Positions 1 through 14,224 of a stretch of 64,000 nt of DNA are shown here, piece by piece. Below the pieces are notes generated by a model. It was not told the origin of the DNA. It made no database searches and worked only from the letters and a program-made list of their open reading frames with translations. Both the position numbers and the translations under genes were made by a program. The number at the start of each line of letters is the position of its first letter. Position 1 is the stretch's first letter. The DNA lies in assembly GCA_050633305.1 (NCBI GenBank), contig JBOEGF010000021.1:50496-114495 (forward strand), in the 5' to 3' direction. Source of the stretch: Nannocystales bacterium. Its GTDB lineage: Bacteria; Myxococcota_A; Polyangia; Nannocystales; Nannocystaceae.

Positions 1-1155
1 CTACGGGCGGTCAGGCCAGGCGAGGTGGAGGGCGCCGTCCTGAGTCGACAGCTCGATGTCGTGGCGGTCGGCGAGGCCTCGAAGTGCTTCCATCCGCGCT
101 GTTTCGTCGCCGCGCCTCGGGCTCGGGGGCGTGGTGCTGATCCGGACGACCAAGTTGGGTTCTCTGCCCAGCCATACTTCCACGCTGCCGCCGTCACGCT
201 CGACTCTGTCGACGGCGTCGTCGACACCGAGCTGGATCAGGCTCTGGAAGACCCCTTCGGGGATGAGCTCGGTCCCGACCCCAGCTCCGTTTCGCACCCG
301 TAGCAGCACCCGGTTTGGAGTCCATTGCTCGACATCTCGGACGATGTCTCGCGCGACGGTGACCACCTCGGTCTCTGTCGCCGCCTCGTCCCCGTCGAGG
401 GTCGCGGCTTTGAGGCGATTCGCCAGCCCGACACAACGCCATGCGGCGCGTTCGAGTTCCGTTCCCCCTCCGGATGAAGATGCCAGCGTTGCCTGCCCCA
501 GCAGTCCCGCGAGTGCCTTGTCGAGGTCCGAGCTGACTGCAAGCGCCACATCGCGACCGTCGACCCCAGCCTGCACCTCGCGATGGATTCCAAAGGCTCT
601 TTGAGGACGGCCGTCCTTGTCCCGGGCTACAATGCGTCCGCAGTCGACCACGTGGGCCCAGCCGCCCTCCTTGCGACGCAACCGGACGTGAACGCGGTAG
701 TGATCGGTGCGTCCTTCGAGGTAGTCGTCCAACGCTTTGCGGGCTCGGGGGAGGTCGTCTTTATGGACCAGCGTGCCCCACTGCGAGAGTGTTGAGGTGA
801 TCTCGCCCTCGTCGTAGCCAAGCATGGTGGCGCACGCGGTGTCGTAGACGAGGTTTCCCGAGCGAAGGTCGTAGTCCCAGACGCCATCGCCCGATTCTCC
901 GATGAGTTCCGCGACATCTCGCTGGGCCAGAACGTCGGTCTCCTCGGTTGTGGAACCGCGTAGCGGGTGGGTCGCGAATCCGGCAGCGGCAGCGGTGAGC
1001 AGCGAGGAGCCGACGAGAACGACGCTCGACCAACCCGCCGCTCCACCCGGCGCCGCGAACAACCCCGCCGCAGCGAGGCCCAGAGCACAAGCGCCAAGAC
1101 CCACGACCGTCGTGTGTCGCGGCGGCGAAATGACTCGGGTCAAACTCCGTTCCAT
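1..1155 (-). CDS. Membrane-anchored PAS-domain protein with degenerate histidine-kinase-like C-terminus
   Basis: Two N-terminal hydrophobic segments; clear PAS/PAC (GVWDYDLRSG...LVHKDDL...RLRRKEGGWAHVVDCGRIVARDKDGRPQRAFGIHREV); the H-box-like segment VSSDLDKALAGLLG lacks His. Stop codon (TAG) at 1-3. Confidence 0.75.
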   Translation of the reverse strand: MERSLTRVISPPRHTTVVGLGACALGLAAAGLFAAPGGAAGWSSVVLVGSSLLTAAAAGFATHPLRGSTTEETDVLAQRDVAELIGESGDGVWDYDLRSGNLVYDTACATMLGYDEGEITSTLSQWGTLVHKDDLPRARKALDDYLEGRTDHYRVHVRLRRKEGGWAHVVDCGRIVARDKDGRPQRAFGIHREVQAGVDGRDVALAVSSDLDKALAGLLGQATLASSSGGGTELERAAWRCVGLANRLKAATLDGDEAATETEVVTVARDIVRDVEQWTPNRVLLRVRNGAGVGTELIPEGVFQSLIQLGVDDAVDRVERDGGSVEVWLGREPNLVVRISTTPPSPRRGDETARMEALRGLADRHDIELSTQDGALHLAWPDRP

Positions 1156-1745: not shown

Positions 1746-2354
1746 ATGAACAAGCCCAAGCTCATCTACTTCGATTTCCCTGGCGGTCGAGGCGAAGACT
1801 GCCGCCTCGCGCTTCATGTGGCGGGCGTCGACTTCGAGGATGATCGGGTTGCGTTCGCGGCGTGGAAGGGCCGCAAAGCGAGTGCCCCCTTCGGTGCCCT
1901 CCCTGTGTTCGAGCTTCCGGGGAAGGGGATGGTTGGAGGGTCGAACGCGATTCTCCGGTTGATCGGCTCCGGCCACGACTTACACCCGACGGACCCGGTG
2001 ACCGCGGCACAGCACGAGGCCGTCATGAGCTCCGTCGAGGACGTCCGTGCACGGGTGAATCCCAACCCGGCCATCGAGGATGAGGCGGAGAAGAAGGCGT
2101 TCCGAGAAGCGCTCGCCGACGGGTATCTCCGTACGTGGGCGGCCAACGTGGAGGCCCAGATCCAGGGTCCGTTCCTCGGCGGGGACAAGCTTCAGGTCGT
2201 GGACCTCAAGCTGCGGACGTTGGTCACCTGGTTTTGCCGTGGTGGCGTTGACCACGTCTCCAAGGACGTCTTCTCCGAGTTCCCCAAACTCACCGCGTTG
2301 GTCGAAGCGGTTCAGAACCACCCCCGCGTGGTCGACTGGTACTCCCGCGGCTAA
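1746..2354 (+). CDS. Glutathione S-transferase family protein
   Basis: MNKPKLIYFDFPGGRGEDCRLAL, PFGALPV, SNAILRLIG, GDKLQVVDL and FPKLTALVEAV motifs; AAGGA upstream of ATG 1746. Confidence 0.9.
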   Translation: MNKPKLIYFDFPGGRGEDCRLALHVAGVDFEDDRVAFAAWKGRKASAPFGALPVFELPGKGMVGGSNAILRLIGSGHDLHPTDPVTAAQHEAVMSSVEDVRARVNPNPAIEDEAEKKAFREALADGYLRTWAANVEAQIQGPFLGGDKLQVVDLKLRTLVTWFCRGGVDHVSKDVFSEFPKLTALVEAVQNHPRVVDWYSRG

Positions 2355-2374
2355 AGCGGCGCGCCGAAGCGCTC

Positions 2375-3169
2375 CTACACCGTCGGTGGCTTGATGAGCG
2401 GGGCAGAGCTCGCGCCGGGGAGCGGAGCCCCGAACCCCGCTTGAGTCTGTAACGCGCCACTGGCCAGTGCTCGTCGGACCGCCGCCTCGACCACGGGCGC
2501 GTGGTCAGCGTCCAGGGCGTAGATACTCACCTCGATCGTGTTTCGCTCTCGCCGTTCGACCTTCGGCTCATGCACGACCGAGGCCCAGTGGCACCGCATC
2601 GCGGAGCGTACGACGTGGCGCTTGAGGGCGACGAAGTCGACACCCTGAGGTTGCTCGACGGCGAATGCGTGCACGTGCGCGCCGGAGACGCTCTGGGTCC
2701 GCCGCAGGGTCTCGCGGCTGATCTTGCCGTACGGGATCACGGCTTCGTCCCCCTCGGGCGTTTGCACGACCAAAGAACGGGCCCCGACATCCAGCACCCG
2801 GCCTTCGACATCACCGACACGCACGTGATCACCAACGCGGCACAGCCGCCCGAAGCGAAAGGCGACGCCGTTGATCAGGTCGTACAACGAGGACCACGAG
2901 AACACGACGAGCGTCCCGATCAGCGAGACCAGGACCGCTGCGAAAGCGGGCTCTCGGGCGAGGAGGGCAGCGAGGCCTGAGGCGATGTACGCCACGAGGA
3001 GCGTGAGCCCCAGGACCGGCGCAAAACGCTGCAGGCCGTCGCGGACCCGCGCAGGCGCTGGCACCACCCGAAACAGGAAGGCGATCAGCTGCAGCACGGC
3101 GATGAGCGCCACCGCGCCCAGCGTCAAGAAGGTGAGGTCTACGATCGACCGGAAGAGATACTCCGTCAT
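2375..3169 (-). CDS. MscS-family mechanosensitive channel domain protein
   Basis: Three TM helices followed by the MscS beta-domain pattern VGDHVRVGDVEGRVLDVGARSLVVQTPEGDEAVIPYGKI; ATGA overlap with the upstream transporter gene. Confidence 0.85.
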   Translation of the reverse strand: MTEYLFRSIVDLTFLTLGAVALIAVLQLIAFLFRVVPAPARVRDGLQRFAPVLGLTLLVAYIASGLAALLAREPAFAAVLVSLIGTLVVFSWSSLYDLINGVAFRFGRLCRVGDHVRVGDVEGRVLDVGARSLVVQTPEGDEAVIPYGKISRETLRRTQSVSGAHVHAFAVEQPQGVDFVALKRHVVRSAMRCHWASVVHEPKVERRERNTIEVSIYALDADHAPVVEAAVRRALASGALQTQAGFGAPLPGASSAPLIKPPTV

Positions 3170-6100
3170 CCCAACATCCCCTGACTGCGGAGGCTATCCG
3201 TCACCAAGTGAGCAACGAATCGGTCCACGTGAAGAACGTCCCTGGCATCGCGGCGAACCAGACCCATCCGTGACAAGGCGGATATGTCCACCTCGAGGTC
3301 GTCTGAGGAAACCGAGGTAATGCGCTGGAGTCGGCGCATCGTCACCTGCTTGTGCACCACGAGCTGGACCAGCAGCGCACTGAGCTCCACCCGAAGCTGT
3401 TCGATCGTCTCTGCACGCGGTCGAGTTGGCCAGCGCATGATCAGCGTGTTGGCGTCCACCTTGTCGATGTGGGAGAGCCACGCCCGGAGTGCGACTGCGA
3501 CAAGCCCGCCCGAAAAGTCGAAGTAGCGGGTGAACAGTCTCGCCTGTCGCCAGGGGGCGAGTTCCTCTTCGGGGGTGCCCGCGAGCTCGAAGTTGATCCC
3601 CGTGGATCCGTGTCGCAGGGAGATGATCGACTTGAGGGTTTCGGCCGGCAACGGGTCACACTCGACCACCGCCAACGCGGACTCGCTGAGGCGGGCAAAG
3701 CTGCTCATGAAGCGCCACGCGTGCACGTTGAGGTTTGCGACAAACAGGCAGCGGTCGCCGTGTTTTCCGAGCAGGCGGATGAACTCCTCCATCAAGGCCA
3801 TGCCTCGGGGGCTGCGCTCCCACCACATCTCCAGGTCGTCGAACACGAACACCGAGCCATCGGGCACCTTGCTCAGTAGCTCATCGGGTTTGCCGCGGTC
3901 TCCAACCTCCGCTTCGAGCGCAACGCGCAAGGCCGCGGGCTCGATGGCGCCCCCAGGAGGTGGGCTCACACGGAAGACCTTGCGGCGCGCGAGGAACTTG
4001 GTGGTGAGAACGTGGCACAGCGCGGTCTTTCCTGCGCCCGTCTCGCCCACGACGAACAATGCTCCCTGTCCGCCGTTCTCGTGACGCTTGATCGCGGCCT
4101 TGATGCGGGCGAGTTCGGCTTGGCGTCCGACCCAGAAGGTCTCGCTGATGGTGGCCTGGCCCGAGAACAACTGCCGATAGTAGAAGGGGAGCGCGCGCAG
4201 CAAGTCCCGGCGAGGGGTCAGGTTCTGAGCGAGCTCCGCGATGCGGTCGACGACGGTGGTGCCGGTTCCGGTTGCGGTGCGCCGGAGCCGACGCGCCAGC
4301 AAGACCCCGGTGCTGCGTCGATACAGCAACGCGACGAAGGTCTGGCGGGCATAACCCGCCGCGCTGGAGACGACGCGCCGCACCCGAGAGACAGCCTTGT
4401 GGCTCTCTCGGCTTCGGATGTAGTGCGAGAGGCTGTCGGAGCGGTTGGTCAACGCATATGGAGCCGTCTCGTCCCGCAGCGTCCCCAGTTGTTCCGCGAC
4501 TCGGGACGAGAACGTCTCAGACGCGTTACGCAGCACTCCCAGCTCGGTGTCGAGACGTCGGGCGCCTTCCCTGGCCACGGCGACCACCTGCTTGCGGAAG
4601 TCTTGGTTCTCCCACCCGCCGGCGGCTTCCATGTCGCCGATCGTGAAACTCAGCAGGCGTGTCACATCTCGAGCCACCCCAACCGTGCGTTGCTCTTGTA
4701 GTGGCAGACCCGAGATCTCCTGGTTCACCACGTCGAGAAACTCGGTCTCGATCAGATACTTGACCAGAGGCCGCACCGAGACGGTGACTTCGTCCGCTTC
4801 CATCGAGACGCCGCTCTCCAGCGCGGCGATCGACTCGTCGCTGAGCGTGGTGGCGGACTCCGGGAGGTCCTCGATGCAGCCGTCGATGTCGCGCGCGATG
4901 GTCTCGAGTACGGCCTGTCCATCGAAGGACGCACGCAGCTCTCGCTCCTGCGGAAGCTTCGGGGCTCGTCCCGCTTGGGCTTCGCGAATGAACGCGCCGA
5001 TGGTCTCGTGGATGTGGACGCCGTCGTTGAGGACGGACGACTTGATGCCCTGTGTGACCTCCGTGCGGGCGCGATGCGCCAGCGCAGAGAACCGGTGCTG
5101 GAAGGCGGCGATCTGCAGGCCCAGATGCGCGCGCTGCAGGAGAAGCCGCTGGTGATCCTCCCACGGTTCGGCGCTGAGGCGGAGCGACGCCAGCTGAGCA
5201 GGAGCCTTTCGGGTACGGCGACGCTCGGTGCGAACCAGGTGCTTTACGTCGACCCGCTTGAGGTCGTCGGCGAAGGCTTGGCTCATGTTGTGGACGCGCC
5301 TCGCGAGGCGGACCCCGGTACCCTCTGCCAGATCCTGCGCCAACGTGATGGCGGCATCGACATGCGAGAGGAGCCGTTGCTTGCGAGCCTCGATCAGAGC
5401 GGGATCGGCCTCGCGACGTTCGATCTTCGCGGCGAGGGCACTGAGCTCGGTCGCCGCTTCGTTGAGGATCTTGCCCAGCTGGACGGCCAGGCGGTGGCTG
5501 CTGGACTGCACGCTGCGTAGCCACTGTTCCAGCAGGTCGGCGGCACTGACGTAGACGTACCAGGACTGCAGGGACGCCAGAGGCACGGTGTAGCTGGGTG
5601 CGCCGCGACGAACGGCGGCCCAGAAGCGGCGGCGACGCTTGAATGCTCGCACCGGACGGGAATCCCGAGAGGTTGGTGCGAACGCGTCGGGCTCGGCGGT
5701 GATGTCGAGTCGCGCGGGGGCGTCGGAGGCGAGTTTCCCCAGCCCCTCGACAAAGGCGTTGAGTGTGGACTGCAGGCTCTTGGCTTGGCTTGGAAGCGTC
5801 TCCTCTTCGTACGCGGCTACGAGCTTCCGCGCCTGAAACAGGAACCCGCCTTGGGCCCGCCCGGCGGGCTTCCGTGCGCGCGCGGGGTCAGCCTCTTCCA
5901 GCCCCTTCCGCACGATCTCAAACTGACGCTCGAGCAGGTTGCGAACGTCTCCCAGCAACGATTCGTGCCGCGCGAGCACGGGGGCGAATCCCTCCTGGAA
6001 CAGGTCGTCGGAGAGCTTGGTGTACGACTCCGCGAACGCGGCCGCGGGGGCCTCGAGTGCGGGGTTCTCTGGCAGCTTGAGGACACGGAGCTCGGTGAGA

Positions 6101-8289
6101 CTGGCTTGCGCTCGCTCCTGGGCTCCCGCCGCCGCGCCCCCGTGGCCTGCGACCGGGAGAACCTCGACGAAGAGCGACGAGCCCTGGACGAGGAGCGTCG
6201 TCCCCAGTCCAGCGAGCAGCTCGTCGAGGTGGGTGAGTGCCTTGCTGTCGAAGCGCCGCAGCGGCGGCAACCCGAGAACAACCAAATCCGCGTCGCCCGA
6301 CTCTTGGCGGATCGTGCTCTCGAACCCGTGCGCTTGCGAGGGGCTCGCAACAACCTTCACCTTGGCTTCGACCCGGGCGTCTGCCAGCACCCCGCGCATG
6401 GCGTGCAGCAAGTCGTCGCTCAACGAGGTGTCCTCGGAGACGAGCAGGAAGCGGAGCTTGGCGCCCTGCCATTGCTCGAACCTGGTTAGGAAGCGCATCA
6501 GCGAGAGGCTGAGCGCGACGTTGCCCTGTTGCGGACGCCACCAGATGTCGACGCGTTCTCGCTTGCCCCACGACCGTTCTCGGTCGTAGTGCAACATGAC
6601 CAGGTTGAAGTCCTGCTTGACCGTGTCCTTGACCAGGTCGACGAATCGGTCGGTGTTTTTGCGGTCGACGTCCCAGTCCAGGAGGACCGTGTTCGGGTCG
6701 AGTCCGGTGAAACCGTGGTGCCGACACGCTGCGGATACCGTGTCGTAGAAGTCGGTGCTGACGGTGCGACGCCGGAACACGCCCACCTGAGCTTCATCCT
6801 CATCGATGGAGGCTGCGGCCTCTTGTTTCGTGTTGACGAGCTCGAAGTCCGTGAGCAGGCCGCTTCCGGTGATCAGCGCCCGGGAGAGGTCGAGCAGCTC
6901 GGGGCGCGACTCGCTCCCCATCTGGCTGAACAGCAGCACGTTGGGTCGCCAGTTTCGGCGCTGCCCTCGTCCTTGGCTGAGGCGATGCAGACCCGCCCGC
7001 ACGATCGATGACCAGATGCCCTCCCAGGTGTCGCCTGCGTCGAGCGTGAGCTGCCTCCGCTTCAAGAACAGGAACAGCCCCGAGAGTAGAATCGTCGCCC
7101 CCGCCATCGCGGCGAAGTCGAGCTGGATCATCACGATGATGCAGGTGACCGCACCGAGCACGCTCACCAGCCGCGGGATTCTGAACTGGGGGCGGAAGTC
7201 GGGGCTTGCCCAGCTCTCGATCGCCGAGCTGATGTTGAGGAAACCGTATGTCGCCAGGAAGACCATCGACACGATGCGCGCGATCGCGTCGAGTTCGGCG
7301 ATGAGAATGCCGCCCTCCGCGATCGCGAACGCCAGCAGGAGGGCGTTGCGCGGTTCGTTGTTCTTCCCGTGCCCCTTGCCGAACCACCGAGGTGTGATCG
7401 AGTCGATCGAAAGCGCTTGGAGAATGCGCGGCGCCCCGAGAATGCTGCCCAGCGCTGAGGACAGCGTCGCGCCCCAGATCCCCGCGGTGACGAAGGCGGG
7501 GACCAAGGAAATCTCCGCGAGGACGTTCGTGTTCGCAAGCTGGGCCGGGTCGACGCGGTAGGCGAGGAAGACCGCCAGCGCGACGTAGACGATGAGTCCG
7601 ACCGCGATCGCGGCCAGCGTTCCGCCGGGGATCGAGCGCTTGGGATCCTTGAGGTCGCCCGACATGTTCACCCCGGCGGTGAAGCCTGTGACCGCCGGGA
7701 AGAAGATTCCGAAGATTACGCCAAGGCTTGGGGCGTTGGGGGCGACGTCGAAGTGACCGGAGGCAGGCACGGGGGAGGAGCCCCCCAGGAACACCGAGAC
7801 CAGCGACAGCGCGATGAGTACCAAGATGAGGTACTGCGTCTTGATCGCGAAGGACGTCGAGATCAGGGTCACGAGCGTCAACGCAATGACCGTGACCGTT
7901 CCCGCAACGCGAACGTTCGCGGGAGTGACGTCCATGTCGATGAACGCCAGGAAGCTTTCGCAGAAGCCGATCACGTAGAGGCTGATCGAGAACGCCAACC
8001 CGACGAACAGCGCCAGGCCCAACGTGCCGCCGATCGGCAGTCCTAGGCTGCGAGAGACGATGTAGTAGGGCCCGCCAGCGCCGACGTTTTTGTCCGTCGC
8101 GATCGAGGAAATGCTCAGCCCCGTGGTGACCGAGATGACGTGAGCCACCGCGATGACGCCCAGCGCCATCCAGAGCCCGCCGTTCCCCACGACCCACGGC
8201 AAGCGCAGGTACATGATCACGCCAAGGATGGTGAGGATCGATGGCGTGAAGACGCCGCCGAACGTTCCGAACTTGCCGTCTTTGCTCAT
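3166..8289 (-). CDS. Cation-chloride cotransporter (SLC12/CCC, amino acid permease superfamily) fused to a helical region and a C-terminal P-loop NTPase
   Basis: TM1 FGTFGGVFTPSILTILGVIMYLRLPWVVG, TM6 FFPAVTGFTAGVNMSGDLKDP, cytoplasmic RNWRPNVL and VDIWW motifs; Walker A GETGAGKT and Walker B VFVFDDLE near the C-terminus. Start taken at MSKDGK (8289). Confidence 0.9.
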   Translation of the reverse strand: MSKDGKFGTFGGVFTPSILTILGVIMYLRLPWVVGNGGLWMALGVIAVAHVISVTTGLSISSIATDKNVGAGGPYYIVSRSLGLPIGGTLGLALFVGLAFSISLYVIGFCESFLAFIDMDVTPANVRVAGTVTVIALTLVTLISTSFAIKTQYLILVLIALSLVSVFLGGSSPVPASGHFDVAPNAPSLGVIFGIFFPAVTGFTAGVNMSGDLKDPKRSIPGGTLAAIAVGLIVYVALAVFLAYRVDPAQLANTNVLAEISLVPAFVTAGIWGATLSSALGSILGAPRILQALSIDSITPRWFGKGHGKNNEPRNALLLAFAIAEGGILIAELDAIARIVSMVFLATYGFLNISSAIESWASPDFRPQFRIPRLVSVLGAVTCIIVMIQLDFAAMAGATILLSGLFLFLKRRQLTLDAGDTWEGIWSSIVRAGLHRLSQGRGQRRNWRPNVLLFSQMGSESRPELLDLSRALITGSGLLTDFELVNTKQEAAASIDEDEAQVGVFRRRTVSTDFYDTVSAACRHHGFTGLDPNTVLLDWDVDRKNTDRFVDLVKDTVKQDFNLVMLHYDRERSWGKRERVDIWWRPQQGNVALSLSLMRFLTRFEQWQGAKLRFLLVSEDTSLSDDLLHAMRGVLADARVEAKVKVVASPSQAHGFESTIRQESGDADLVVLGLPPLRRFDSKALTHLDELLAGLGTTLLVQGSSLFVEVLPVAGHGGAAAGAQERAQASLTELRVLKLPENPALEAPAAAFAESYTKLSDDLFQEGFAPVLARHESLLGDVRNLLERQFEIVRKGLEEADPARARKPAGRAQGGFLFQARKLVAAYEEETLPSQAKSLQSTLNAFVEGLGKLASDAPARLDITAEPDAFAPTSRDSRPVRAFKRRRRFWAAVRRGAPSYTVPLASLQSWYVYVSAADLLEQWLRSVQSSSHRLAVQLGKILNEAATELSALAAKIERREADPALIEARKQRLLSHVDAAITLAQDLAEGTGVRLARRVHNMSQAFADDLKRVDVKHLVRTERRRTRKAPAQLASLRLSAEPWEDHQRLLLQRAHLGLQIAAFQHRFSALAHRARTEVTQGIKSSVLNDGVHIHETIGAFIREAQAGRAPKLPQERELRASFDGQAVLETIARDIDGCIEDLPESATTLSDESIAALESGVSMEADEVTVSVRPLVKYLIETEFLDVVNQEISGLPLQEQRTVGVARDVTRLLSFTIGDMEAAGGWENQDFRKQVVAVAREGARRLDTELGVLRNASETFSSRVAEQLGTLRDETAPYALTNRSDSLSHYIRSRESHKAVSRVRRVVSSAAGYARQTFVALLYRRSTGVLLARRLRRTATGTGTTVVDRIAELAQNLTPRRDLLRALPFYYRQLFSGQATISETFWVGRQAELARIKAAIKRHENGGQGALFVVGETGAGKTALCHVLTTKFLARRKVFRVSPPPGGAIEPAALRVALEAEVGDRGKPDELLSKVPDGSVFVFDDLEMWWERSPRGMALMEEFIRLLGKHGDRCLFVANLNVHAWRFMSSFARLSESALAVVECDPLPAETLKSIISLRHGSTGINFELAGTPEEELAPWRQARLFTRYFDFSGGLVAVALRAWLSHIDKVDANTLIMRWPTRPRAETIEQLRVELSALLVQLVVHKQVTMRRLQRITSVSSDDLEVDISALSRMGLVRRDARDVLHVDRFVAHLVTDSLRSQGMLG

Positions 8290-8547
8290 GAGCGCCCGGG
8301 CTCCCGGGGCCCTAGAAGTGTGCCTCAGAGGGCGTGTAGGCGGGGGGAGGACCACCGCCGCCTGGGCAGTCGCTCAGCATGCGCAGGTGTGACCAACCCC
8401 CCGACCAGAACTGATGGCTCCGTGCTGGCGACTACGATGAGTACGCTCCAGCGACACGCCGACCGTTCCCATTGGAGCCGGTGGCCGGTTCCCCGCGAAC
8501 CGCTCTCGACCGGACGACGTGCGAGTGGGCTTGCGTCGGCGCGGGGC

Positions 8548-10716
8548 TTACTCGAGTTCCCAATGATAGACGCCGCCGAGGGCCGTCGAGACGGCGACGG
8601 TGTGGCTCTTCGTGAGGTCGACGGACCTCACCGGGTAGGCGGTCGGCTCGAACGATACGAGTTGCGGCATGGACGGGTCGCTGATGTCCACGATGTCGAG
8701 TCCATAGCCGTGGCCTAGGTAGGCTCGGTCGCCATCGATGGCGGCATCGTGCGTCAGGTAGATCTCCCCGTTCTCGAAGGTTGAGAGCAGTGTGGGGGCG
8801 GTCGGGTCGTCAACGTCGACGACGTGGAAACTGCTCGAACACGCGACGATGGCGGTGCCTTGCTCGATGGCGACGCCCGAGGCGTGGGAACAGTCGGGGT
8901 GGGTGTAGTGACCGATGATGGTCGGCGTGTTTGGGTCGCTGATGTCGACGATCCGCATGCCGCCGACGCCGAACGTGGAGCCGTCGGCGAGGAACGCGAG
9001 GTCGCCATGGATCTCAATGTCGAAGGTCTGGCTGGTTGCGAGGGTGGAGACGAGCTGCGGTGAGGTCGGGTCGGAGATGTCGACAACCCGCAGCGCGCCT
9101 CCGTTGGTGGACTCGGCAACGTAGGCGTAGTCTCCGGCGACGGCCACCGCTGACGGAAAGCCTCCGGTGCTGACGAACCCTGCATGCGCGGGCACGGAAG
9201 GGTTGCTGATGTCGTAGACGTGCAGGCCGGAACTCCAGTCCGCGAGGTAGGCGTAGTCTCCCGAGACAGCGACGCCTTCGACCCCGGGTTGGTCTCCGGG
9301 CACCTCCATGCGACCGATGACCTCGAGGGTTGCAGCATCGAGGATGCGCCCGCCGAAGTAGAAGTCTGCGACCAACACGTGCTCGCCCGACACGACAGCG
9401 TCGGTACAGTCGACACACCCCGGCGTTTCGAGCTCGTCGTCCACCGACGCGTCGCCAGAGACGTCGATGGCGAGCAGCCGGCCCAGCTCGGTCATCAGTA
9501 CCAACTCTCCGGAGCCGACGCCGGCGGCGGTTGTTCTTCCGGTTGGGAGGGGGACGACGGCGGACATCGTCACGGCGTCCGTGTCCGACCAGTCGAGCAT
9601 CGAGAGGCCGTCTTCGTGGGGGAGGAATCCGCGCGAACCGTCGACAGCGACCTCGCGGGAGTAGGTCTTGTCCGTGAACAGCGAGGTCGGCAGGTTGATC
9701 TCCGAGACATCGTAGAGAGTGGTTCCGAACCCGCCGCTGGTCACCAGTTGGTCGTCCTGCGTGAACTCCATTCCGATCGGCGTCGAGACGCTCGACAGGC
9801 CCAGGAATGCCAGCGCGTTCGTTCGGTCGAGAGCGCCGACCGAGGTGCCGATGAAGCCGCCCAGCGCGAAGTAGAGTCGGTCTCCGACTGGTTGAATGTG
9901 ATAGATGCCGAACTCTCCGAGCTGGTTGAGGACCACCGGAGCGGTGGGGTCGGTGAGGTCGAACTCAAACACGCCGGCTTCGGTGTCCGACAAGAAGAGA
10001 CGATCGCCGTCGATGGCGACGTCTTCGGGGCGACGGTACGCGCTCGCCGTGTAGGTGATCGTGTCGACCACTGAAGGGGCGCTGGGATCGGAGACGTCGA
10101 CAACATGCAGGCGGCCGTCGAGGTCTTGGTATTCCACCACGTAGGCCAACTCGCCTTGGACGGCGACGGCGTTCACCACCCCGACAAACGGGTCGGTCTC
10201 GCCGAGTTTGGTGACGTTGCTGGGGTCGCTGAGGTCCCAGAGTGTGAGGCGGGGGCCCTGCGCTGCAAACGCGATGCTGCCCTCGACCTGCATGTCGCGA
10301 GGTTGGCCGCCCGCATGTTCGACCTCGACGACCCAGTCGGGTTCCCCCCCCGTGCCGTCGGTGTCGCCGCCCGTCGTACTCTCGTCTCCGCCAGAGGTCG
10401 TGTCGTCGGCGCCGCCCGTAGAGGTCGTGTCGTCAGCGCCACTCCCTGACGTCGTGGTCTCTCCGCCAGTGCCGGAGGTGGTCCCGTCTGTGGTGCCACC
10501 TGCCGTGCTTCCCGATACGCTTCCGCTGGCCGCTGTGGGGTCACCGGTGCCTGTTTCCGCCGCGCCGCCGGACGTTTCACCGTCCGTCTCCCCCATACCC
10601 GCCGTGGCTTCGTCGTCGCCACATGCTGCCAGTGAGGTGGCGAGCGGCGCCGCAATCAGGAGCTGTCCGAGGAGGAGGTTGGGATTGGGGAACGGATTCA
10701 AGCGATTGCGCAACAT
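8548..10716 (-). CDS. LVIVD-repeat beta-propeller lipoprotein
   Basis: Lipobox LAAC, T/G/S-rich linker, many LxVVDISDPxxP and GDYAYVA repeats. Confidence 0.9.
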   Translation of the reverse strand: MLRNRLNPFPNPNLLLGQLLIAAPLATSLAACGDDEATAGMGETDGETSGGAAETGTGDPTAASGSVSGSTAGGTTDGTTSGTGGETTTSGSGADDTTSTGGADDTTSGGDESTTGGDTDGTGGEPDWVVEVEHAGGQPRDMQVEGSIAFAAQGPRLTLWDLSDPSNVTKLGETDPFVGVVNAVAVQGELAYVVEYQDLDGRLHVVDVSDPSAPSVVDTITYTASAYRRPEDVAIDGDRLFLSDTEAGVFEFDLTDPTAPVVLNQLGEFGIYHIQPVGDRLYFALGGFIGTSVGALDRTNALAFLGLSSVSTPIGMEFTQDDQLVTSGGFGTTLYDVSEINLPTSLFTDKTYSREVAVDGSRGFLPHEDGLSMLDWSDTDAVTMSAVVPLPTGRTTAAGVGSGELVLMTELGRLLAIDVSGDASVDDELETPGCVDCTDAVVSGEHVLVADFYFGGRILDAATLEVIGRMEVPGDQPGVEGVAVSGDYAYLADWSSGLHVYDISNPSVPAHAGFVSTGGFPSAVAVAGDYAYVAESTNGGALRVVDISDPTSPQLVSTLATSQTFDIEIHGDLAFLADGSTFGVGGMRIVDISDPNTPTIIGHYTHPDCSHASGVAIEQGTAIVACSSSFHVVDVDDPTAPTLLSTFENGEIYLTHDAAIDGDRAYLGHGYGLDIVDISDPSMPQLVSFEPTAYPVRSVDLTKSHTVAVSTALGGVYHWELE

Positions 10717-10919
10717 GGGGAGACCCTCGTTTGTCGAGAAGACGAAGGCTGAGGCGGTTCGATCACTCCCGTCGCCAGAAAAAAGAAAGAGTGCGCGATT
10801 TGCACCCCCCAGCAGTGATCGGTTCCTGTTGTTGAGCGTCATCTCCGGCGATGGATGTCGGTGATCCACGCCCCAGCCCCCCGGGCTACACTGCTTGCGA
10901 GCCAGAGTTTCCCGTCTCT

Positions 10920-13589
10920 ATGGAGGAGCGAGCCGCAAACGCATCCGATCTCGACCGCGGTGACGTTCTTCCGCTGCGGAAGATGCTCGAGCAGAGGGCC
11001 CGCGATCAATCTGAACTCGCCCTGGCCGAGGCGACACTTGCTCGCGAGTCGGTCCGCAATCGGCTGTTCAACACCGACGCGTCGAACAAGATCGACCGGT
11101 ACTCGGTGATCAAGCGTATCGGTCGTGGTGCGATGGGCTCGGTCTACCTCGCCTACGACGGTCATCTCGACCGCAAGGTCGCGCTGAAGATCATCCGCCG
11201 GGCTTCCGAGGACGACAACGCGTCGCGGAACCTGCTCGAGGCACGGGCGATGGCCCGCGTCAAACACCCGGCCGTTGTCGGGATCTTTGACGTGGGGCGA
11301 TTCGACCGGTGGCTGTTCTTGGCGATGGAGTATGTCGGCGGCCTGAGCGTCCGGCAGTGGCTCTCCGAAGCTCGACGTGACTGGAGGGAGATCGCGGAAC
11401 ACTTCGCGTTCGTCGGCGACGGACTCGCAGCCGCGCACCGGGCAGGAATGTCCCACGGGGACATTAAACTCGATAACCTGCGTTTCAGCAGCGCAGGCAA
11501 ACTTCGTGTGTTGGACTTTGGGCTGGCGCGTTTCGCCGAGCAGTCCGACGGTGAGGCTGGTACGGCAGGGGGGACGTTGGGCTACATGGCCCCCGAGTTG
11601 CTTGCGGGGCAGCGCCCGGGTGGGTTGAGCGACCAGTTTGCGTTCTGTGTGAGCCTTTGGGAGGCGCTCTCGGGCGAGCGACCGTTTCCCGGTCGAAGTG
11701 TCGCGGAGCAGCGAGTGTTTCATCGCGCCAAGCTTCCGGAGCTGCGTGTGTCCGGTGTGGGCAGCTCCGCACTACGAAACTGCCTGCGGCGTGGCTTGGC
11801 CAGGTCTCCGGAGTCTCGTTATCCCAACATGGACCAGCTGCTCGAAGTACTCGGTGCGTCGATTCGTCAGCAGCGGCGGGTCCGACGTACCGCGTCTGTG
11901 GCGGCTGTCGTGGGGGCCTCGATCGGGGTGACCTCGCTCGTTGTGGCGAGGGACGAGCGCCCCTCGTGCGAAGATGTCGCGTCGCTCGAGCACCAGCTTT
12001 GGACTGCCGACGAACGCTCGGCCGTGGCGGGGGCGTTTCTCGGGGATGCCGAACGTCGGACCGACGGTCGTGGTCGGCGGTTGCTGGCGGCACTCGACAC
12101 GTACGCACATCGCTGGGCCGTCCGCTCGAATGAGAGTTGCGAGGCTCGCGATGGGGATGAGGACGCGGCCTCCGCCGAGCTCCTTCAGCTGCGCGTCTCG
12201 TGTCTGGAGGGCGCGAGGACCGGATTCCGGGCGCTGGTCGGGGCGCTCGGCGAGTTGGAGCCCGACGGTGGCCGGCAGATGCTGATGCGCAGCGGTGACG
12301 TGACCGGGGCGCTCGCGGACCCTGCGGCGTGCAGCGACGCGAGCGTGGTCATGTCGCTCGGGGCACCCGCTTCGGACGCTCAGCGAGACGACGTGATCAG
12401 CGTGAGCACCGACCTCACGCTGGCGGAGGTGTACCGGCGCTTGGGCAATCTCGAGCTCGCATCGGAGTTGACCGCGACCGCGCTCGAAGAGGCGGACGCG
12501 CTCCGTCACCCCCCGCTGCAGGCCGCGGGATATTTGGCGCGGGGCCTGCTCCTCGCAGATACCGGAGACATCGAAGCATCGGCGTCTCACCTCCGAATCT
12601 CGTTGGGCCACGCCCTGCGCGGGCAGGACAACGAGACGGCGGCAAAGGCGGCCGAGCAGTTGGCTCACATCGTCGGTTACGAACTCGCGCGGCCGACCGA
12701 AGGCGAACACTGGCTCTGGATCGCAGAGGAGATTCGCTTGGGTCTTCCCGCAGAGGCTCGGGACACGGCTGCGATCAACTCCATCCGGGCGGCGATCCAG
12801 GTTCGCGCCGGTGACTATGAGGACGCGGTCGTCTCGTACACGCAAGCGATCGCCGACACGAGACGGACGAACGAAGCCAAGCAGCAGGACTCGAGTAGCG
12901 ATCCTCTCCTGGCAACACTGCACAACAACCTTGGCAGTGCGCTGAGTCTGTTGGGCCGAGAAGGGCGAGCGCGACGCCACTTCGCGAGCGCGCTCGATAT
13001 CCGGCTTCGGGCGTTGGGCAATGACCACCCGCTGGTCGGGTCCGCGTTACGAAACCTGGGGACCGCAGAGATGGAGGCAGGAGAAACCTCCGCCGCGCAG
13101 GAACACCTCGAGCAGGCGCTGGCCATCCAGGAGCGCGCCTATGGACCGGACAGCCTGCGCACGGTCTATACGTTGACCTCGCTCTCGCGTCTGCACTGCC
13201 GCGCGGAGGAGTTCGAGGTGGGCTTGTCACTCGCGTCTCGGGGGTTGGCGTTGCAGCGCCGTGAGCTCGGCGGTGACCATCCCGTCACCGGAGAGTGTCT
13301 GGCTGTCCTCGCGCATTGCCAGATCGGCGCGGGCCGGCTCGACCTCGCGCGGACCGTACTGGTCGAGCTTTCGGGCGTGACCGAGGCCCACCCGGACGAT
13401 TGGCATCTGCAGATTCGTTCGCTCGACCTGCGGGCAGCGGTGAGCATGGCCGAGGGGAGCTACGCCGCGGCCGCGGAGACCTACGATTCCGTCGCCGCAC
13501 GGTGGCGGGAACAAGGGAGAGAGACCGACGCGGTTCGGGCGAGTTCAGATGCGGTTCGGGCACGCGCTCGGATCGAGCCGGACCCGTGA
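10920..13589 (+). CDS. Ser/Thr protein kinase with TM helix and C-terminal TPR repeats
   Basis: IGRGAMGSVY, VALK, HGDIKLDN, DFGLA, GTLGYMAPE; TM helix VAAVVGASIGVTSLVVA; TPR repeats such as ALDIRLRALGNDHPLVGSALRNLG. Confidence 0.92.
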   Translation: MEERAANASDLDRGDVLPLRKMLEQRARDQSELALAEATLARESVRNRLFNTDASNKIDRYSVIKRIGRGAMGSVYLAYDGHLDRKVALKIIRRASEDDNASRNLLEARAMARVKHPAVVGIFDVGRFDRWLFLAMEYVGGLSVRQWLSEARRDWREIAEHFAFVGDGLAAAHRAGMSHGDIKLDNLRFSSAGKLRVLDFGLARFAEQSDGEAGTAGGTLGYMAPELLAGQRPGGLSDQFAFCVSLWEALSGERPFPGRSVAEQRVFHRAKLPELRVSGVGSSALRNCLRRGLARSPESRYPNMDQLLEVLGASIRQQRRVRRTASVAAVVGASIGVTSLVVARDERPSCEDVASLEHQLWTADERSAVAGAFLGDAERRTDGRGRRLLAALDTYAHRWAVRSNESCEARDGDEDAASAELLQLRVSCLEGARTGFRALVGALGELEPDGGRQMLMRSGDVTGALADPAACSDASVVMSLGAPASDAQRDDVISVSTDLTLAEVYRRLGNLELASELTATALEEADALRHPPLQAAGYLARGLLLADTGDIEASASHLRISLGHALRGQDNETAAKAAEQLAHIVGYELARPTEGEHWLWIAEEIRLGLPAEARDTAAINSIRAAIQVRAGDYEDAVVSYTQAIADTRRTNEAKQQDSSSDPLLATLHNNLGSALSLLGREGRARRHFASALDIRLRALGNDHPLVGSALRNLGTAEMEAGETSAAQEHLEQALAIQERAYGPDSLRTVYTLTSLSRLHCRAEEFEVGLSLASRGLALQRRELGGDHPVTGECLAVLAHCQIGAGRLDLARTVLVELSGVTEAHPDDWHLQIRSLDLRAAVSMAEGSYAAAAETYDSVAARWREQGRETDAVRASSDAVRARARIEPDP

Positions 13590-13627
13590 ACGGGGGAACG
13601 CTCGGCCGCGAGATTCGGTACTCTCGA

Positions 13628-14224
13628 ATGGAGATGGCCTCGGACCTCGAACTCTATCGCCAGTGGCGCGATGGCGATGGCCCGAGCGGCGAGCTGCTGT
13701 TCGAGCGGCACTTCGAGATGGTGTTCTTGTTCTTCCGAACACGGGTCGACCAGGCCGCAGAGGACCTTGCCCAGCAGACCTTCTTGGCCTGCATTCAGGC
13801 CCAGCCTGGCTTTCGCGGTGATGGCTCGTTTCGCGCGTACGTGCTTGCTGCCGCCCGCACACGTCTGTACGACCACCTCCGCAAGACGCAGCGCAGGGGG
13901 GCCCAGGTCGACATCGAGGAGTATTCGATGGAGGACCTGGGGACGACTCCGAGCCAGGCGATCGCGAAAGATGAAGATCGTCGCCTGCTGGAACTTGCGA
14001 TGCGACGACTCCCCATCGCACTCAACCTAGCGATCGAGATGTACTACACGCAGGGGCTACGAGGCCCGGAACTCTCACGAGCACTTGGCGTGCCGGAAGG
14101 AACGGTTCGCAGCCGCATCCGGCGTGCGCTGGCGAAGCTTCGCTCCGAAATGGAAGCGCTGGGTGCCGGCGAGGTCGACGTCGAGCGAAGCACCCGCACG
14201 CTCGACGCCGACGGAACCGAGTGA
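13628..14224 (+). CDS. ECF RNA polymerase sigma factor
   Basis: Sigma2 region AEDLAQQTFLAC...FRGDGSFRAYV; sigma4 region LGVPEGTVRSRIRRA. Lies directly downstream of the kinase. Confidence 0.92.
   Translation: MEMASDLELYRQWRDGDGPSGELLFERHFEMVFLFFRTRVDQAAEDLAQQTFLACIQAQPGFRGDGSFRAYVLAAARTRLYDHLRKTQRRGAQVDIEEYSMEDLGTTPSQAIAKDEDRRLLELAMRRLPIALNLAIEMYYTQGLRGPELSRALGVPEGTVRSRIRRALAKLRSEMEALGAGEVDVERSTRTLDADGTE

Follow-up and report, generated by a model that had tools for sequence, protein, structure and literature searches.

In the window, by which we mean the whole 64,000-nucleotide stretch of DNA analysed here, a single reading frame connects a CCC/SLC12-type cotransporter, via predicted helical bundles, to an Orc1/Cdc6-like AAA+ module, and its stop codon overlaps the start codon of a gene for an MscS-like protein. 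We consider it somewhat probable that the pair is a dedicated two-gene unit for ion and volume homeostasis, in which a nucleotide switch would govern salt uptake and release. A literature search found no description of a transporter–AAA+ fusion paired with an MscS-like gene, in agreement with a preliminary description of this DNA, which knew of no characterised example.

Both genes lie on the reverse strand, a point that the preliminary description left out. The longest open reading frame called for the fusion gene begins at a GTG (3166..8355, reverse strand, 1729 aa). The ATG at 8289 yields 1707 aa in a frame without interruption, as first described, and is the likely start because homologues begin with MSKDGKFGTFGG at this position (Table 1). 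The junction between the two genes reads ...GGGATGACGGAG, so the TGA stop of the fusion gene and the ATG of the MscS-like gene share an ATGA, which confirms the overlap proposed earlier. Contigs from one public DNA run (X1) cover 27 of 30 bins, and no insertions or deletions are listed for them. A contig that crosses from one gene into the other (2990-3231) shows 0 differences. These contigs provide no independent support, because X1 is possibly the source sample. That the fusion is no misassembly follows from other genomes: the CCC domain and the module share one frame at 63 of the 70 public loci with the 5' side on the contig, and the fusion is both real and conserved. The neighbours of the pair are ordinary genes (an LVIVD-repeat protein, a Ser/Thr kinase, a GST and a PAS protein), and flanking genes are not conserved across loci.

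Table 1. Features of the transporter–AAA+ fusion gene and its MscS-like partner (window positions; residues are those of the 1707-aa protein).
Feature	Position	Strand	Basis
Fusion gene, 1707 aa (CCC transporter, helical bundles, AAA+, winged helix)	3166..8289, stop included	-	ORF list and translation
CCC/SLC12-type membrane domain, residues 1-440	6970..8289	-	Pfam AA_permease 13-410; PDB KCC4/KCC2/NKCC1; ATLSSAL identity
Putative CCC-type cytoplasmic C-terminal domain, residues 441-715	6145..6969	-	KCC4 alignments; TIGR00930 stretch 259-649
First long four-helix bundle with small beta/alpha tip (predicted), residues 743-1011	5257..6063	-	AF2 models
Second long helical bundle (predicted), residues 1040-1292	4414..5172	-	AF2 model
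Low-confidence linker, residues 1293-1343	4261..4413	-	AF2 pLDDT <50 at model residues 573-623
AAA+ base and lid, residues 1346-1620	3430..4254	-	Pfam AAA_16/AAA_22; Foldseek; VIA; residue conservation
Walker A GETGAGKT, residues 1415-1422	4024-4047	-	Sequence
Walker B VFVFDDLE, residues 1480-1487	3829-3852	-	Sequence
LRHGSTG with putative arginine finger R1559	3598-3618	-	Residue conservation
C-terminal winged-helix domain (predicted), residues 1621-1707	3169..3429	-	AF2 secondary structure; archaeal Orc1/Cdc6 alignments to model residues 963-985
ATGA stop/start overlap of the two genes	3166..3169	-	Sequence
MscS-like partner gene, 264 aa, from ATG	2375..3169	-	ORF list; Pfam MS_channel_2nd 95-154; E. 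coli MscS alignment; hydropathy; partner alignment

Judged by its sequence matches, the N-terminus of the fusion protein is an NKCC/KCC-like salt cotransporter of the CCC type with a putative Na+ site. The AA_permease match scored 154 bits (cutoff 24.6), and PDB matches ranged from E 2e-80 to 1e-77, including KCC4 (2.3e-80), KCC2 and NKCC1 (about 1e-77). On the fusion protein the SLC12 model of Pfam reached 18.4 bits, below its cutoff of 27. Alignments to KCC4 extend to residues 664-706, a K+/Cl- cotransporter C-terminal-domain entry (6vwa) is matched at E 1e-6, and both NWRP (446-449) and DIWW (581-584) lie in this putative C-terminal domain. The NCBIfam K-Cl cotransporter model TIGR00930 gave 398.2 bits (E 8.6e-119) against a cutoff of 953.4; by this score we regard the transporter as a relative of that curated subfamily, not a member. 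In TM8, the stretch ATLSSAL (274-280) is identical to residues 610-616 of human NKCC1 and, like FFPAVTG and GGPYYI, is at least 90% conserved among 44 full-length homologues. The ion-site roles of these stretches, including the Na+ site, are ones that we presume from residue roles in other CCC proteins. The membrane domain is also the slowest-evolving part of the protein, with a mean distance of 0.52, compared to 1.09 for the AAA+ domain and 2.1-2.25 for the bundles. The transporter looks functional, and coupled Na+/K+/Cl- transport would be the prediction from residue conservation alone.

The several hundred residues behind the transporter, first described as helical or coiled, are predicted to be helical, and AF2 refines them to two four-helix bundles (about 743-1292). 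Folded alone, the first bundle reached a pLDDT of 93.7, and its structural matches were generic bundles only. The second repeats the element order of the first (helices 320-583 versus 23-291 of the AF2 model) and is common to Na_H_Exchanger paralogues of the protein.

The ATPase that follows resembles an Orc1/Cdc6-like AAA+ protein with lid and winged helix. Pfam matched AAA_16 (1386-1436, 33.9 bits, cutoff 32.6) and AAA_22 (1407-1573, 31.9 bits, cutoff 27). AF2 pLDDT was around 90 across residues 1346-1707, and Foldseek returned RuvB/Orc1/Cdc6 matches at E of about 1e-7. The best VIA alignments were to Cdc6 (7jgr_G, Z 15.6, 3.8 A rmsd, 243 residues aligned), Orc1/Cdc6 (2qby_A, Z 15.4, 281 aligned) and 1w5s_A (Z 14.9), and the closest folds in structure searches also included TnsC and RFC. 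By sequence, the module had no match among solved structures (best E 0.55). The tail had been called short and HTH-like; in the AF2 model it is a predicted winged helix. A STAND NTPase was considered and rejected, as nSTAND3 reached 13.5 bits, below its cutoff of 27.2, and sensor repeats are absent after the winged helix; the “AAA+/STAND-like” switch of the preliminary description is corrected to an Orc1/Cdc6-like AAA+. Neither domain search nor model revealed a C-terminal repeat array (TPR, WD40 or LRR), and the winged helix, which reaches residue 1707, is the last element of the protein. On one paralogue (L106), nSTAND_NTPase5 reached 16.7 bits against a cutoff of 34.

All four motifs named in that description, NWRP, DIWW and the two Walker motifs, are present, and the P-loop residues are intact throughout the clade: all 45 sequences compared carry G1415, G1420, K1421, D1485 and R1559. 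In the wider family (n = 201), R1559 and W1604 are each kept in 200 members and D1485 in 184. The Walker A lysine is K in 174, R in 19, and another residue or a gap in 8, while N1519 (99/201) and N1521 (120/201) are variable positions. Some Na_H_Exchanger paralogues carry GSGRTS, or EN in place of DD. Since the Walker lysine or aspartate is replaced in part of the family, hydrolysis cannot be essential everywhere, which counts against the homeostasis unit proposed here. The arginine finger (R1559, at a box-VII-like position) and sensor 1 are assigned on the assumption that Orc1/Cdc6 patterns apply here, and sensor 2 has no clearly placed residue in the CCC class.

The transporter is the exchangeable part of this architecture. 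The pairing of CCC fusion and MscS gene proposed earlier holds, while its scope was too narrow, since the same module, with an MscS-like gene, also lies behind Na+/H+-exchanger domains (Na_H_Exchanger) and behind another membrane domain; an MS_channel_2nd gene was downstream of the module in 5 of 7 paralogue loci. The source genome has four such modules, each with its own MscS-like gene downstream, as well as an unfused CCC paralogue of 883 aa (L020). Because the partner is kept behind differing transporters, the conserved core consists of the module and its MscS-like partner. Identity to the window protein is 92-79% within the genus and 69-39% in other genera of the family. Of 201 genomes sampled from the phylum, 76 have the module. 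A carrier is also available in culture, Paraliomyxa miuraensis SMH-27-4 (locus L026). Records labelled Calditrichia and Bacteroidota contain family members as well. The family has thousands of members, with 2664 representatives at E 1e-30 or better. This spread is housekeeping-like.

The partner protein has three hydrophobic segments, an MscS beta domain and an alpha/beta domain, and only the beta domain exceeds a Pfam cutoff (43.9 bits, cutoff 20.2). E. coli MscS (2vv5) aligns to residues 41-152 at E 3e-4, with gaps in the stretch aligned to its pore-lining helix. NCBIfam MscS models scored far below their cutoffs (NF007662, 22.6 bits versus 321; NF047601, 18.4 versus 500). N117 and G121 of E. 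coli MscS correspond to D97, which is conserved in 90% or more of 44 partners, and to G101, which does not vary among them. The partner is a divergent member of the MscS family, and may be one that does not conduct. Its linkage to the module, which the preliminary description had pointed out in the window, is conserved across phyla. An MscS-like ORF lies directly downstream at 10 of 10 relatives' loci, and at 68 of the 75 public loci with room for one, in Myxococcota, Calditrichota and Bacteroidota. Most of these have an overlapping stop and start: among 69 related loci, the two genes share 4 nt in 34 and a single nucleotide in a further 5 (39/69), which suggests coupled synthesis of module protein and partner, with the second gene translationally coupled to the first. 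In the partner tree, all partners that belong to CCC fusions cluster together (24/24, SH-aLRT 90), and those of the source genome's other modules fall elsewhere. On this phylogenetic evidence, each module class and its partner lineage are old, dedicated pairs.

A homeostasis unit of this kind could work as follows. The AAA+ module would act as a slow nucleotide switch and not as a motor, with modules self-associating in an ATP-dependent manner via the conserved arginine. Self-association would shift both the helical arms and the C-terminal domain of the CCC, and in this way switch salt uptake on or off. The MscS-like partner, for its part, would signal membrane tension to the module or be under the module's control, such that salt import (volume gain) and valve release (volume loss) would be coordinated and not opposed. 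A more specific version, which we offer tentatively and hold to be unlikely, is that AAA+ modules assemble with ATP and dock on the cytoplasmic cage of the cognate MscS-like oligomer. In such a membrane supercomplex, one nucleotide switch would reciprocally gate salt import (through the CCC or the exchanger) and solute release (through the MscS-like channel). If true, the complex would make a self-contained regulator of bacterial cell volume, with a logic like that of the animal kinase–CCC-plus-release-channel circuit, built from unrelated parts.

The strongest competing explanation is that the module alone regulates, scaffolds or localises the transporter, and that the MscS-like gene is a second, co-transcribed osmotic gene that works independently, coupled to the module neither physically nor through regulation. 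It is common for osmotic genes to share an operon, the adjacent partner is missing at 7 of 75 loci (each with a Bacteroidota or Bacteroidales label), and in a pairwise-distance comparison all domain–partner correlations were 0.87-0.93, with no domain singled out. However, the partner tracks the module and not the transporter, being kept when a Na+/H+ exchanger or another membrane domain stands in front; partner lineages differ from one module class to another, and the overlapping genes point to coupled synthesis. We regard mere co-transcription as rather doubtful.

It is improbable that the protein is a membrane-tethered transcription regulator, in which the transporter would serve as a sensor (a “trigger transporter”) and the AAA+ domain and winged helix would bind DNA according to ion flux. 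The nearest folds are indeed DNA-binding initiators and loaders (Orc1/Cdc6, RuvB, TnsC and RFC), a winged helix stands at the protein end, and paralogues weakly match TrmB, MarR and ArsR HTH models, all below cutoff. However, the third helix of the winged helix, at the recognition position (SDDLEVDISALSR), is acidic, and across 201 family members the mean net charge is -0.6 for recognition helix plus wing and +0.8 for the whole domain; by this charge analysis the winged helix looks unsuited to DNA binding. The domain is also tethered to the membrane behind about 900 residues, and a DNA-binding role would leave the near-constant, translationally coupled MscS-like partner unexplained. Least probable of all is an anti-phage or conflict system, in which a STAND/AAA+-type sensor NTPase and membrane-permeabilising effectors, the transporter and the channel, would collapse ion gradients upon infection: although AAA_16/AAA_22 NTPases are common among defence systems, BrxC_BrxD (18.2 bits, cutoff 22.2) and nSTAND3 give sub-threshold matches, and BrxC, Avs and NLR proteins are among the structural neighbours, PADLOC assigned 0 families to the two proteins, the NTPase is not followed by an array of sensor repeats, identity declines from genus to other genera as given above, the transport-site stretches are strongly conserved, there are up to four copies per genome in a module found across the phylum, and the flanks hold ordinary genes.

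As an ion and volume homeostasis unit, the pair can be compared with several known systems. SLC12 cotransporters (NKCC1, NCC, KCC1-4) and bacterial CCC homologues of roughly 730-900 aa share the 12-helix LeuT/APC-fold membrane domain, and probably the cytoplasmic C-terminal domain, with the fusion protein. In known CCCs the C-terminal domain is the last one, and phosphorylation (WNK-SPAK/OSR1) provides the regulation, whereas the fusion protein adds about 990 residues (two bundles, AAA+ and winged helix) and is followed by an MscS-like gene. We know of no CCC that carries an ATPase. Orc1/Cdc6 initiators and loaders (archaeal Orc1/Cdc6, Cdc6, TnsC, RFC) have the same order of base, lid and C-terminal winged helix, with Walker A/B and the arginine; here, in contrast, a membrane transporter precedes the module in the same protein, its winged-helix third helix is acidic, and an origin or replication context is absent. 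In KefC, KefB and similar proteins, a secondary ion transporter is gated by a fused C-terminal nucleotide-binding domain (KTN/RCK, CBS), sometimes with an ancillary protein. The regulatory domain in the fusion differs in being an AAA+ with winged helix behind two 8-nm-class bundles, with no RCK/CBS fold, and its ancillary gene encodes an MscS-type membrane protein. The beta domain is common to the partner and the MscS family (E. coli MscS, YnaI, MscK, MscM), from which the very divergent partner differs in always being encoded behind an AAA+ module; to our knowledge, this holds for no characterised MscS.

SLC12 cotransporters are the textbook regulators of animal cell volume, and MscS channels the textbook release valves of bacteria. 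Bacterial SLC12 relatives are almost unstudied, and here a CCC and an MscS-like protein are joined by a large AAA+ module. If the coupling that we infer is true, it would represent a new principle of bacterial osmoregulation and the first instance of a secondary transporter under the control of an AAA+ switch. The field would also gain a simple prokaryotic system for understanding how CCC C-terminal domains gate transport.

The two-gene unit is real, conserved, and apparently undescribed. We take the ATG at 8289 as the likely start of its long gene because homologue N-termini begin MSKDGKFGTFGG at that position; an in-frame GTG upstream at 8355 would yield 1729 aa. The gene junction reads GGGATGACGGAG, in which the long gene's stop and the partner's ATG have ATGA in common, bearing out the overlap of the fusion gene with an MscS gene claimed in the preliminary description. 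The motifs quoted there were likewise all found in the long protein (NWRP at 446-449, DIWW at 581-584, GETGAGKT at 1415-1422, and VFVFDDLE at 1480-1487). For one public DNA run, contigs spanned 27 of 30 bins, no insertion or deletion was listed, and the junction was bridged by one of the contigs, but these are fragmentary and the run is possibly the source sample, hence it lends no independent support to the assembly.

Features of the two-gene unit, its surroundings, and related genes (positions are those of the window unless residues, a structure model, or a locus, L, of a relative or paralogue is named)
Feature	Location	Strand	Details
Long fusion gene	8289 (ATG) to 3166	minus	1707 aa, single open frame
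Partner gene	2375-3169	minus	264 aa; ATG overlaps long gene's stop
LVIVD-repeat beta-propeller protein	8548-10869	minus	773 aa; upstream neighbour
Ser/Thr kinase with TPR repeats	10851-13589	plus	912 aa; upstream neighbour
ECF-type sigma factor frame	13295-14224	plus	overlaps kinase 3' end
AA_permease	fusion protein residues 13-410		Pfam, 154 bits
Two helical units	model 23-291 and 320-583		AF2; element order alike: two long helices, small beta/alpha tip, two long helices
Low-confidence linker	model 573-623		AF2
Alpha/beta ATPase with helical lid, and winged helix	model 626-987		AF2
Module 1 of the window's genome	contig 21 (window)		CCC fusion; MS_channel_2nd gene directly downstream
Module 2	contig 5, L105 4922-9199	minus	Na_H_Exchanger, 1426 aa; MS_channel_2nd gene directly downstream
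Module 3	contig 10, L014 4075-7677	minus	1201 aa; MS_channel_2nd gene directly downstream
Module 4	contig 14, L106 2868-6347	plus	1160 aa; MS_channel_2nd gene directly downstream
Second MS_channel_2nd gene near module 4	L106 7144-8004	minus	convergent to contig-14 partner
Unfused CCC paralogue	contig 18, L020 3121-5769	plus	883 aa; AA_permease, SLC12, weak CCC_C_2nd_pro
Second MscS-like ORF, Calditrichia	L058 9237-10424	minus	

That the fusion first proposed is real and not a misassembly is evident from public sequences. The cation-chloride cotransporter (CCC) domain and the cytoplasmic extension behind it (the module) lie in one frame at 63 of 70 loci with the 5' side on the contig, and AA_permease is also present in 53 of the 57 protein clusters that have residues 720-1707 in common. 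Of the four clusters lacking it, three are 1003-1391 aa long, one being labelled partial at source; the last, of 1753 aa, matches weakly and has no Pfam domain. At the remaining seven loci (L033, L034, L039, L048, L051, L060, and L090), the CCC part immediately precedes the module but is out of frame with it or separated from it by a single in-frame stop; four of these records carry MFD-type isolate names, and in those we suspect assembly errors.

Both the architecture and its conservation across phyla are established. Among 40 related genomes, a full-length, stop-free copy was found in 10, counting the window's genome; one further copy ends at a contig edge, and one is split across two frames. 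The scan of species-representative genomes gave 121 relatives, with 80 loci retained, whose record titles name Nannocystaceae, Polyangiaceae, Sandaracinaceae, other Myxococcota, Calditrichia, many Bacteroidales, and other Bacteroidota, along with one Melioribacteraceae, one Hyphomicrobiales, and the cultured Paraliomyxa miuraensis SMH-27-4. The Hyphomicrobiales MAG (L076) is the sole locus with an alphaproteobacterial label; in the quick tree, its partner and the one from a Bacteroidales MAG (L089) are sisters (SH-aLRT 100), which suggests that the locus was mis-binned or recently transferred. A module profile matched 5985 of 1.84 billion cluster representatives at E <=1e-3 and 2664 at E <=1e-30, and most of the best 150 matches are about 1700 aa. 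Within the phylum, 76 of 201 sampled genomes (74 of the 193 of high quality) had the module at E <=1e-30, often with two to four copies.

SLC12 cotransporters are the closest known kind for the transporter part, although it falls short of curated membership. Pfam SLC12 scored 18.4 bits against a cutoff of 27, and the NCBIfam K-Cl cotransporter model TIGR00930 reached E 8.6e-119, yet its 398 bits fall far short of the curated cutoff of 953. When residues 1-720 were compared with solved structures, KCC4, KCC2, KCC3, KCC1, and NKCC1 matched at E 2e-80 to 1e-74; these alignments extend to residues 664-706 and therefore probably include the CCC C-terminal domain. Matches to the TM8 region ranked NKCC1 (3.6e-31) ahead of NCC (7e-25) and the KCCs (3e-22). 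The stretch ATLSSAL (residues 274-280) recurs unchanged at 610-616 of human NKCC1, where A610, S613, and S614 form a Na+ site absent in KCCs. The fusion's transporter may therefore be Na+-coupled. An unfused CCC paralogue in the same genome means that plain and fused forms coexist.

Sequence search with residues 721-1707 against solved structures gave chance-level matches alone (best E 0.55), and Pfam placed AAA_16 at residues 1386-1436 (33.9 bits, barely over its cutoff of 32.6) and AAA_22 at residues 1407-1573 (31.9 bits). An AF2 model of the same region, built from 45 sequences, had a mean pLDDT of 85.8. What was earlier noted as helical or coiled sequence appears there as two predicted long-helix units, and the supposed HTH-like tail becomes a predicted winged helix. 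Foldseek matched the module model to RuvB, archaeal Orc1/Cdc6, ORC/Cdc6 subunits, and the archaeal ATPases 2fna and 2qen (E 1e-7 to 6e-6), with Apaf-1 and NLRs weaker in that range. VIA, a search independent of Foldseek, placed Cdc6 on top (Z 15.6, 3.8 A, 243 aligned); the matches to Orc1/Cdc6 2qby (Z 15.4, 281 aligned) and 1w5s (Z 14.9, 304 aligned) both reach the winged helix, and TnsC, RFC, NSF-D2, BrxC, and Avs ranked lower. Orc1/Cdc6-like AAA+ proteins thus offer the closest known fold, although the fusion module has no DNA context. The AAA+ part of the earlier AAA+/STAND-like label holds, whereas a STAND NTPase is ruled out, since the domain signature failed and sensor repeats are absent.

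The first helical unit folded alone with a pLDDT of 93.7. Foldseek found no match for it at E <=0.001 (best 3.2e-3, a designed bundle), and the best hit of a wide VIA search was also a designed bundle (Z 11.6, 3.6 A, 188 aligned), under the Z of about 13 common for helical bundles. Bacterial dynamin/Mx stalks, flagellins, and chemoreceptor domains matched at Z 8-10, and residues 735-1300 had no usable match among named clusters of the ESM Atlas. As modelled, this part looks like a generic long four-helix bundle with no specific relative that could be named, which is no proof of a new fold.

Seven residues (G1415, G1420, K1421, D1485, R1559, H1560, and W1604; alignment numbering plus 720 gives fusion-protein numbering) are invariant in the window and 44 homologues, and nucleotide-binding residues are intact in this clade. 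The intact Walker motifs of the preliminary description hold for this close set but less strictly in a wider set of 201 (the window and 200 homologues, none shorter than 400 aa), where the Walker A lysine K1421 is kept in 174 (19 have R, and 8 have another residue or a gap) and the Walker B D1485 in 184. R1559 (200/201), H1560 (194/201), and W1604 (200/201) outrank that lysine in conservation and therefore may have a role beyond ATP hydrolysis. R1559 sits within VVECDPLPAETLKSIISLRHG, which we take to resemble the Orc1/Cdc6 box VII arginine-finger segment; by that likeness, the nucleotide site would be completed between subunits. In the winged helix, the helix at the recognition position reads SDDLEVDISALSR. 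Together with the wing, it averages a net charge of -0.6 across the 201 sequences, evidence against DNA binding of the classical kind.

The partner protein has three hydrophobic segments by hydropathy and an MscS beta domain (Pfam MS_channel_2nd, 43.9 bits), and its residues 41-152 match the E. coli MscS structure (E 3e-4). MscS channels are its closest known kind; the curated MscS model scored 22.6 bits, far under the cutoff of 321. A neighbourhood survey confirmed the linkage. By tblastn, the partner is directly downstream in all 10 relatives' loci having room, and an HMM built from six partners found an MscS-like ORF there in 68 of the 75 public loci where 700 nt or more remained downstream. 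The seven loci with no adjacent MscS-like ORF by HMM (L057, L060, L062, L073, L079, L084, and L085) all have Bacteroidota-type labels, and at L060 such an ORF occurs 1.3 kb further on. Stop and start overlap by 4 nt (ATGA, GTGA, or TTGA) in 34 of 69 partner-bearing loci and by 1 nt in five; the others have gaps of at most 190 nt, mostly under 60 nt. The module is tightly paired, often with translational coupling, with a private MscS-like lineage. A quick maximum-likelihood tree built from 32 partners grouped together all 24 that accompany CCC fusions (SH-aLRT 90, unstarred) and placed those of the window genome's other modules elsewhere, with long branches flagged. With separate partner groups for each module class, the pairs look old and dedicated. 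Pairwise distances of the partner correlated with those of every domain (0.87-0.93), and the top partial r was 0.65 (AAA+ given the membrane domain), but this comparison, of 40 rows after an N-terminal motif filter removed 13 loci, does not discriminate between domains. At one Calditrichia locus (L058), a second MscS-like ORF groups with partners of the class with an unassigned membrane domain and not with the local CCC partner, which hints at a further module nearby.

The module also occurs behind other transporters. Weaker matches to residues ~1165-1680 in related genomes were proteins of 1370-1490 aa with an N-terminal Na_H_Exchanger domain (L013, L015, L017, and L018); another was the contig-10 protein of the window's genome, which has no Pfam domain ahead of the module. 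An MS_channel_2nd gene is directly downstream in five of seven paralogue loci, while an M28 peptidase follows L013 and nothing recognisable follows L016. In the contig-10 and contig-14 proteins, an N-terminal hydrophobic segment is followed by ~500 polar residues and, ahead of the ATPase, by a cluster of hydrophobic segments; these two are therefore probably membrane proteins as well, with an unassigned membrane domain. On contig 14, two MscS-like genes stand tail to tail. The module accompanies the MscS-like partner, not the transporter, and the transporter domain is exchangeable.

The fusion is flanked by genes for an LVIVD-repeat protein, a Ser/Thr kinase with TPR repeats, a GST, and a PAS protein, but flanking genes are not conserved beside homologues at the 80 loci, where only generic kinase matches recurred (5/80). 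The scan of 2000-8800 gave no promoter-like sites and four terminator-like sites versus 4.0 expected by chance. Neither protein matched PADLOC defence models.

In the portions of the literature consulted, we found no account of an AAA+ module joined to a CCC or an antiporter, or of an MscS gene paired with such a module. Kef-type exchangers, which have fused KTN/RCK domains as well as ancillary subunits, follow the same logic, but their fold differs from that of the module. A mechanism for a two-gene salt and volume unit is plausible; loss of the P-loop lysine in about one-eighth of the wider family and the seven loci with no adjacent partner count against it or limit it. The AAA+ module would act as an Orc1/Cdc6-type nucleotide switch, assembling on ATP and resetting slowly. 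It would set transporter activity by way of the helical arms and the C-terminal domain of the CCC, and it would communicate with the MscS-like protein, which would coordinate the uptake of salt with its release.
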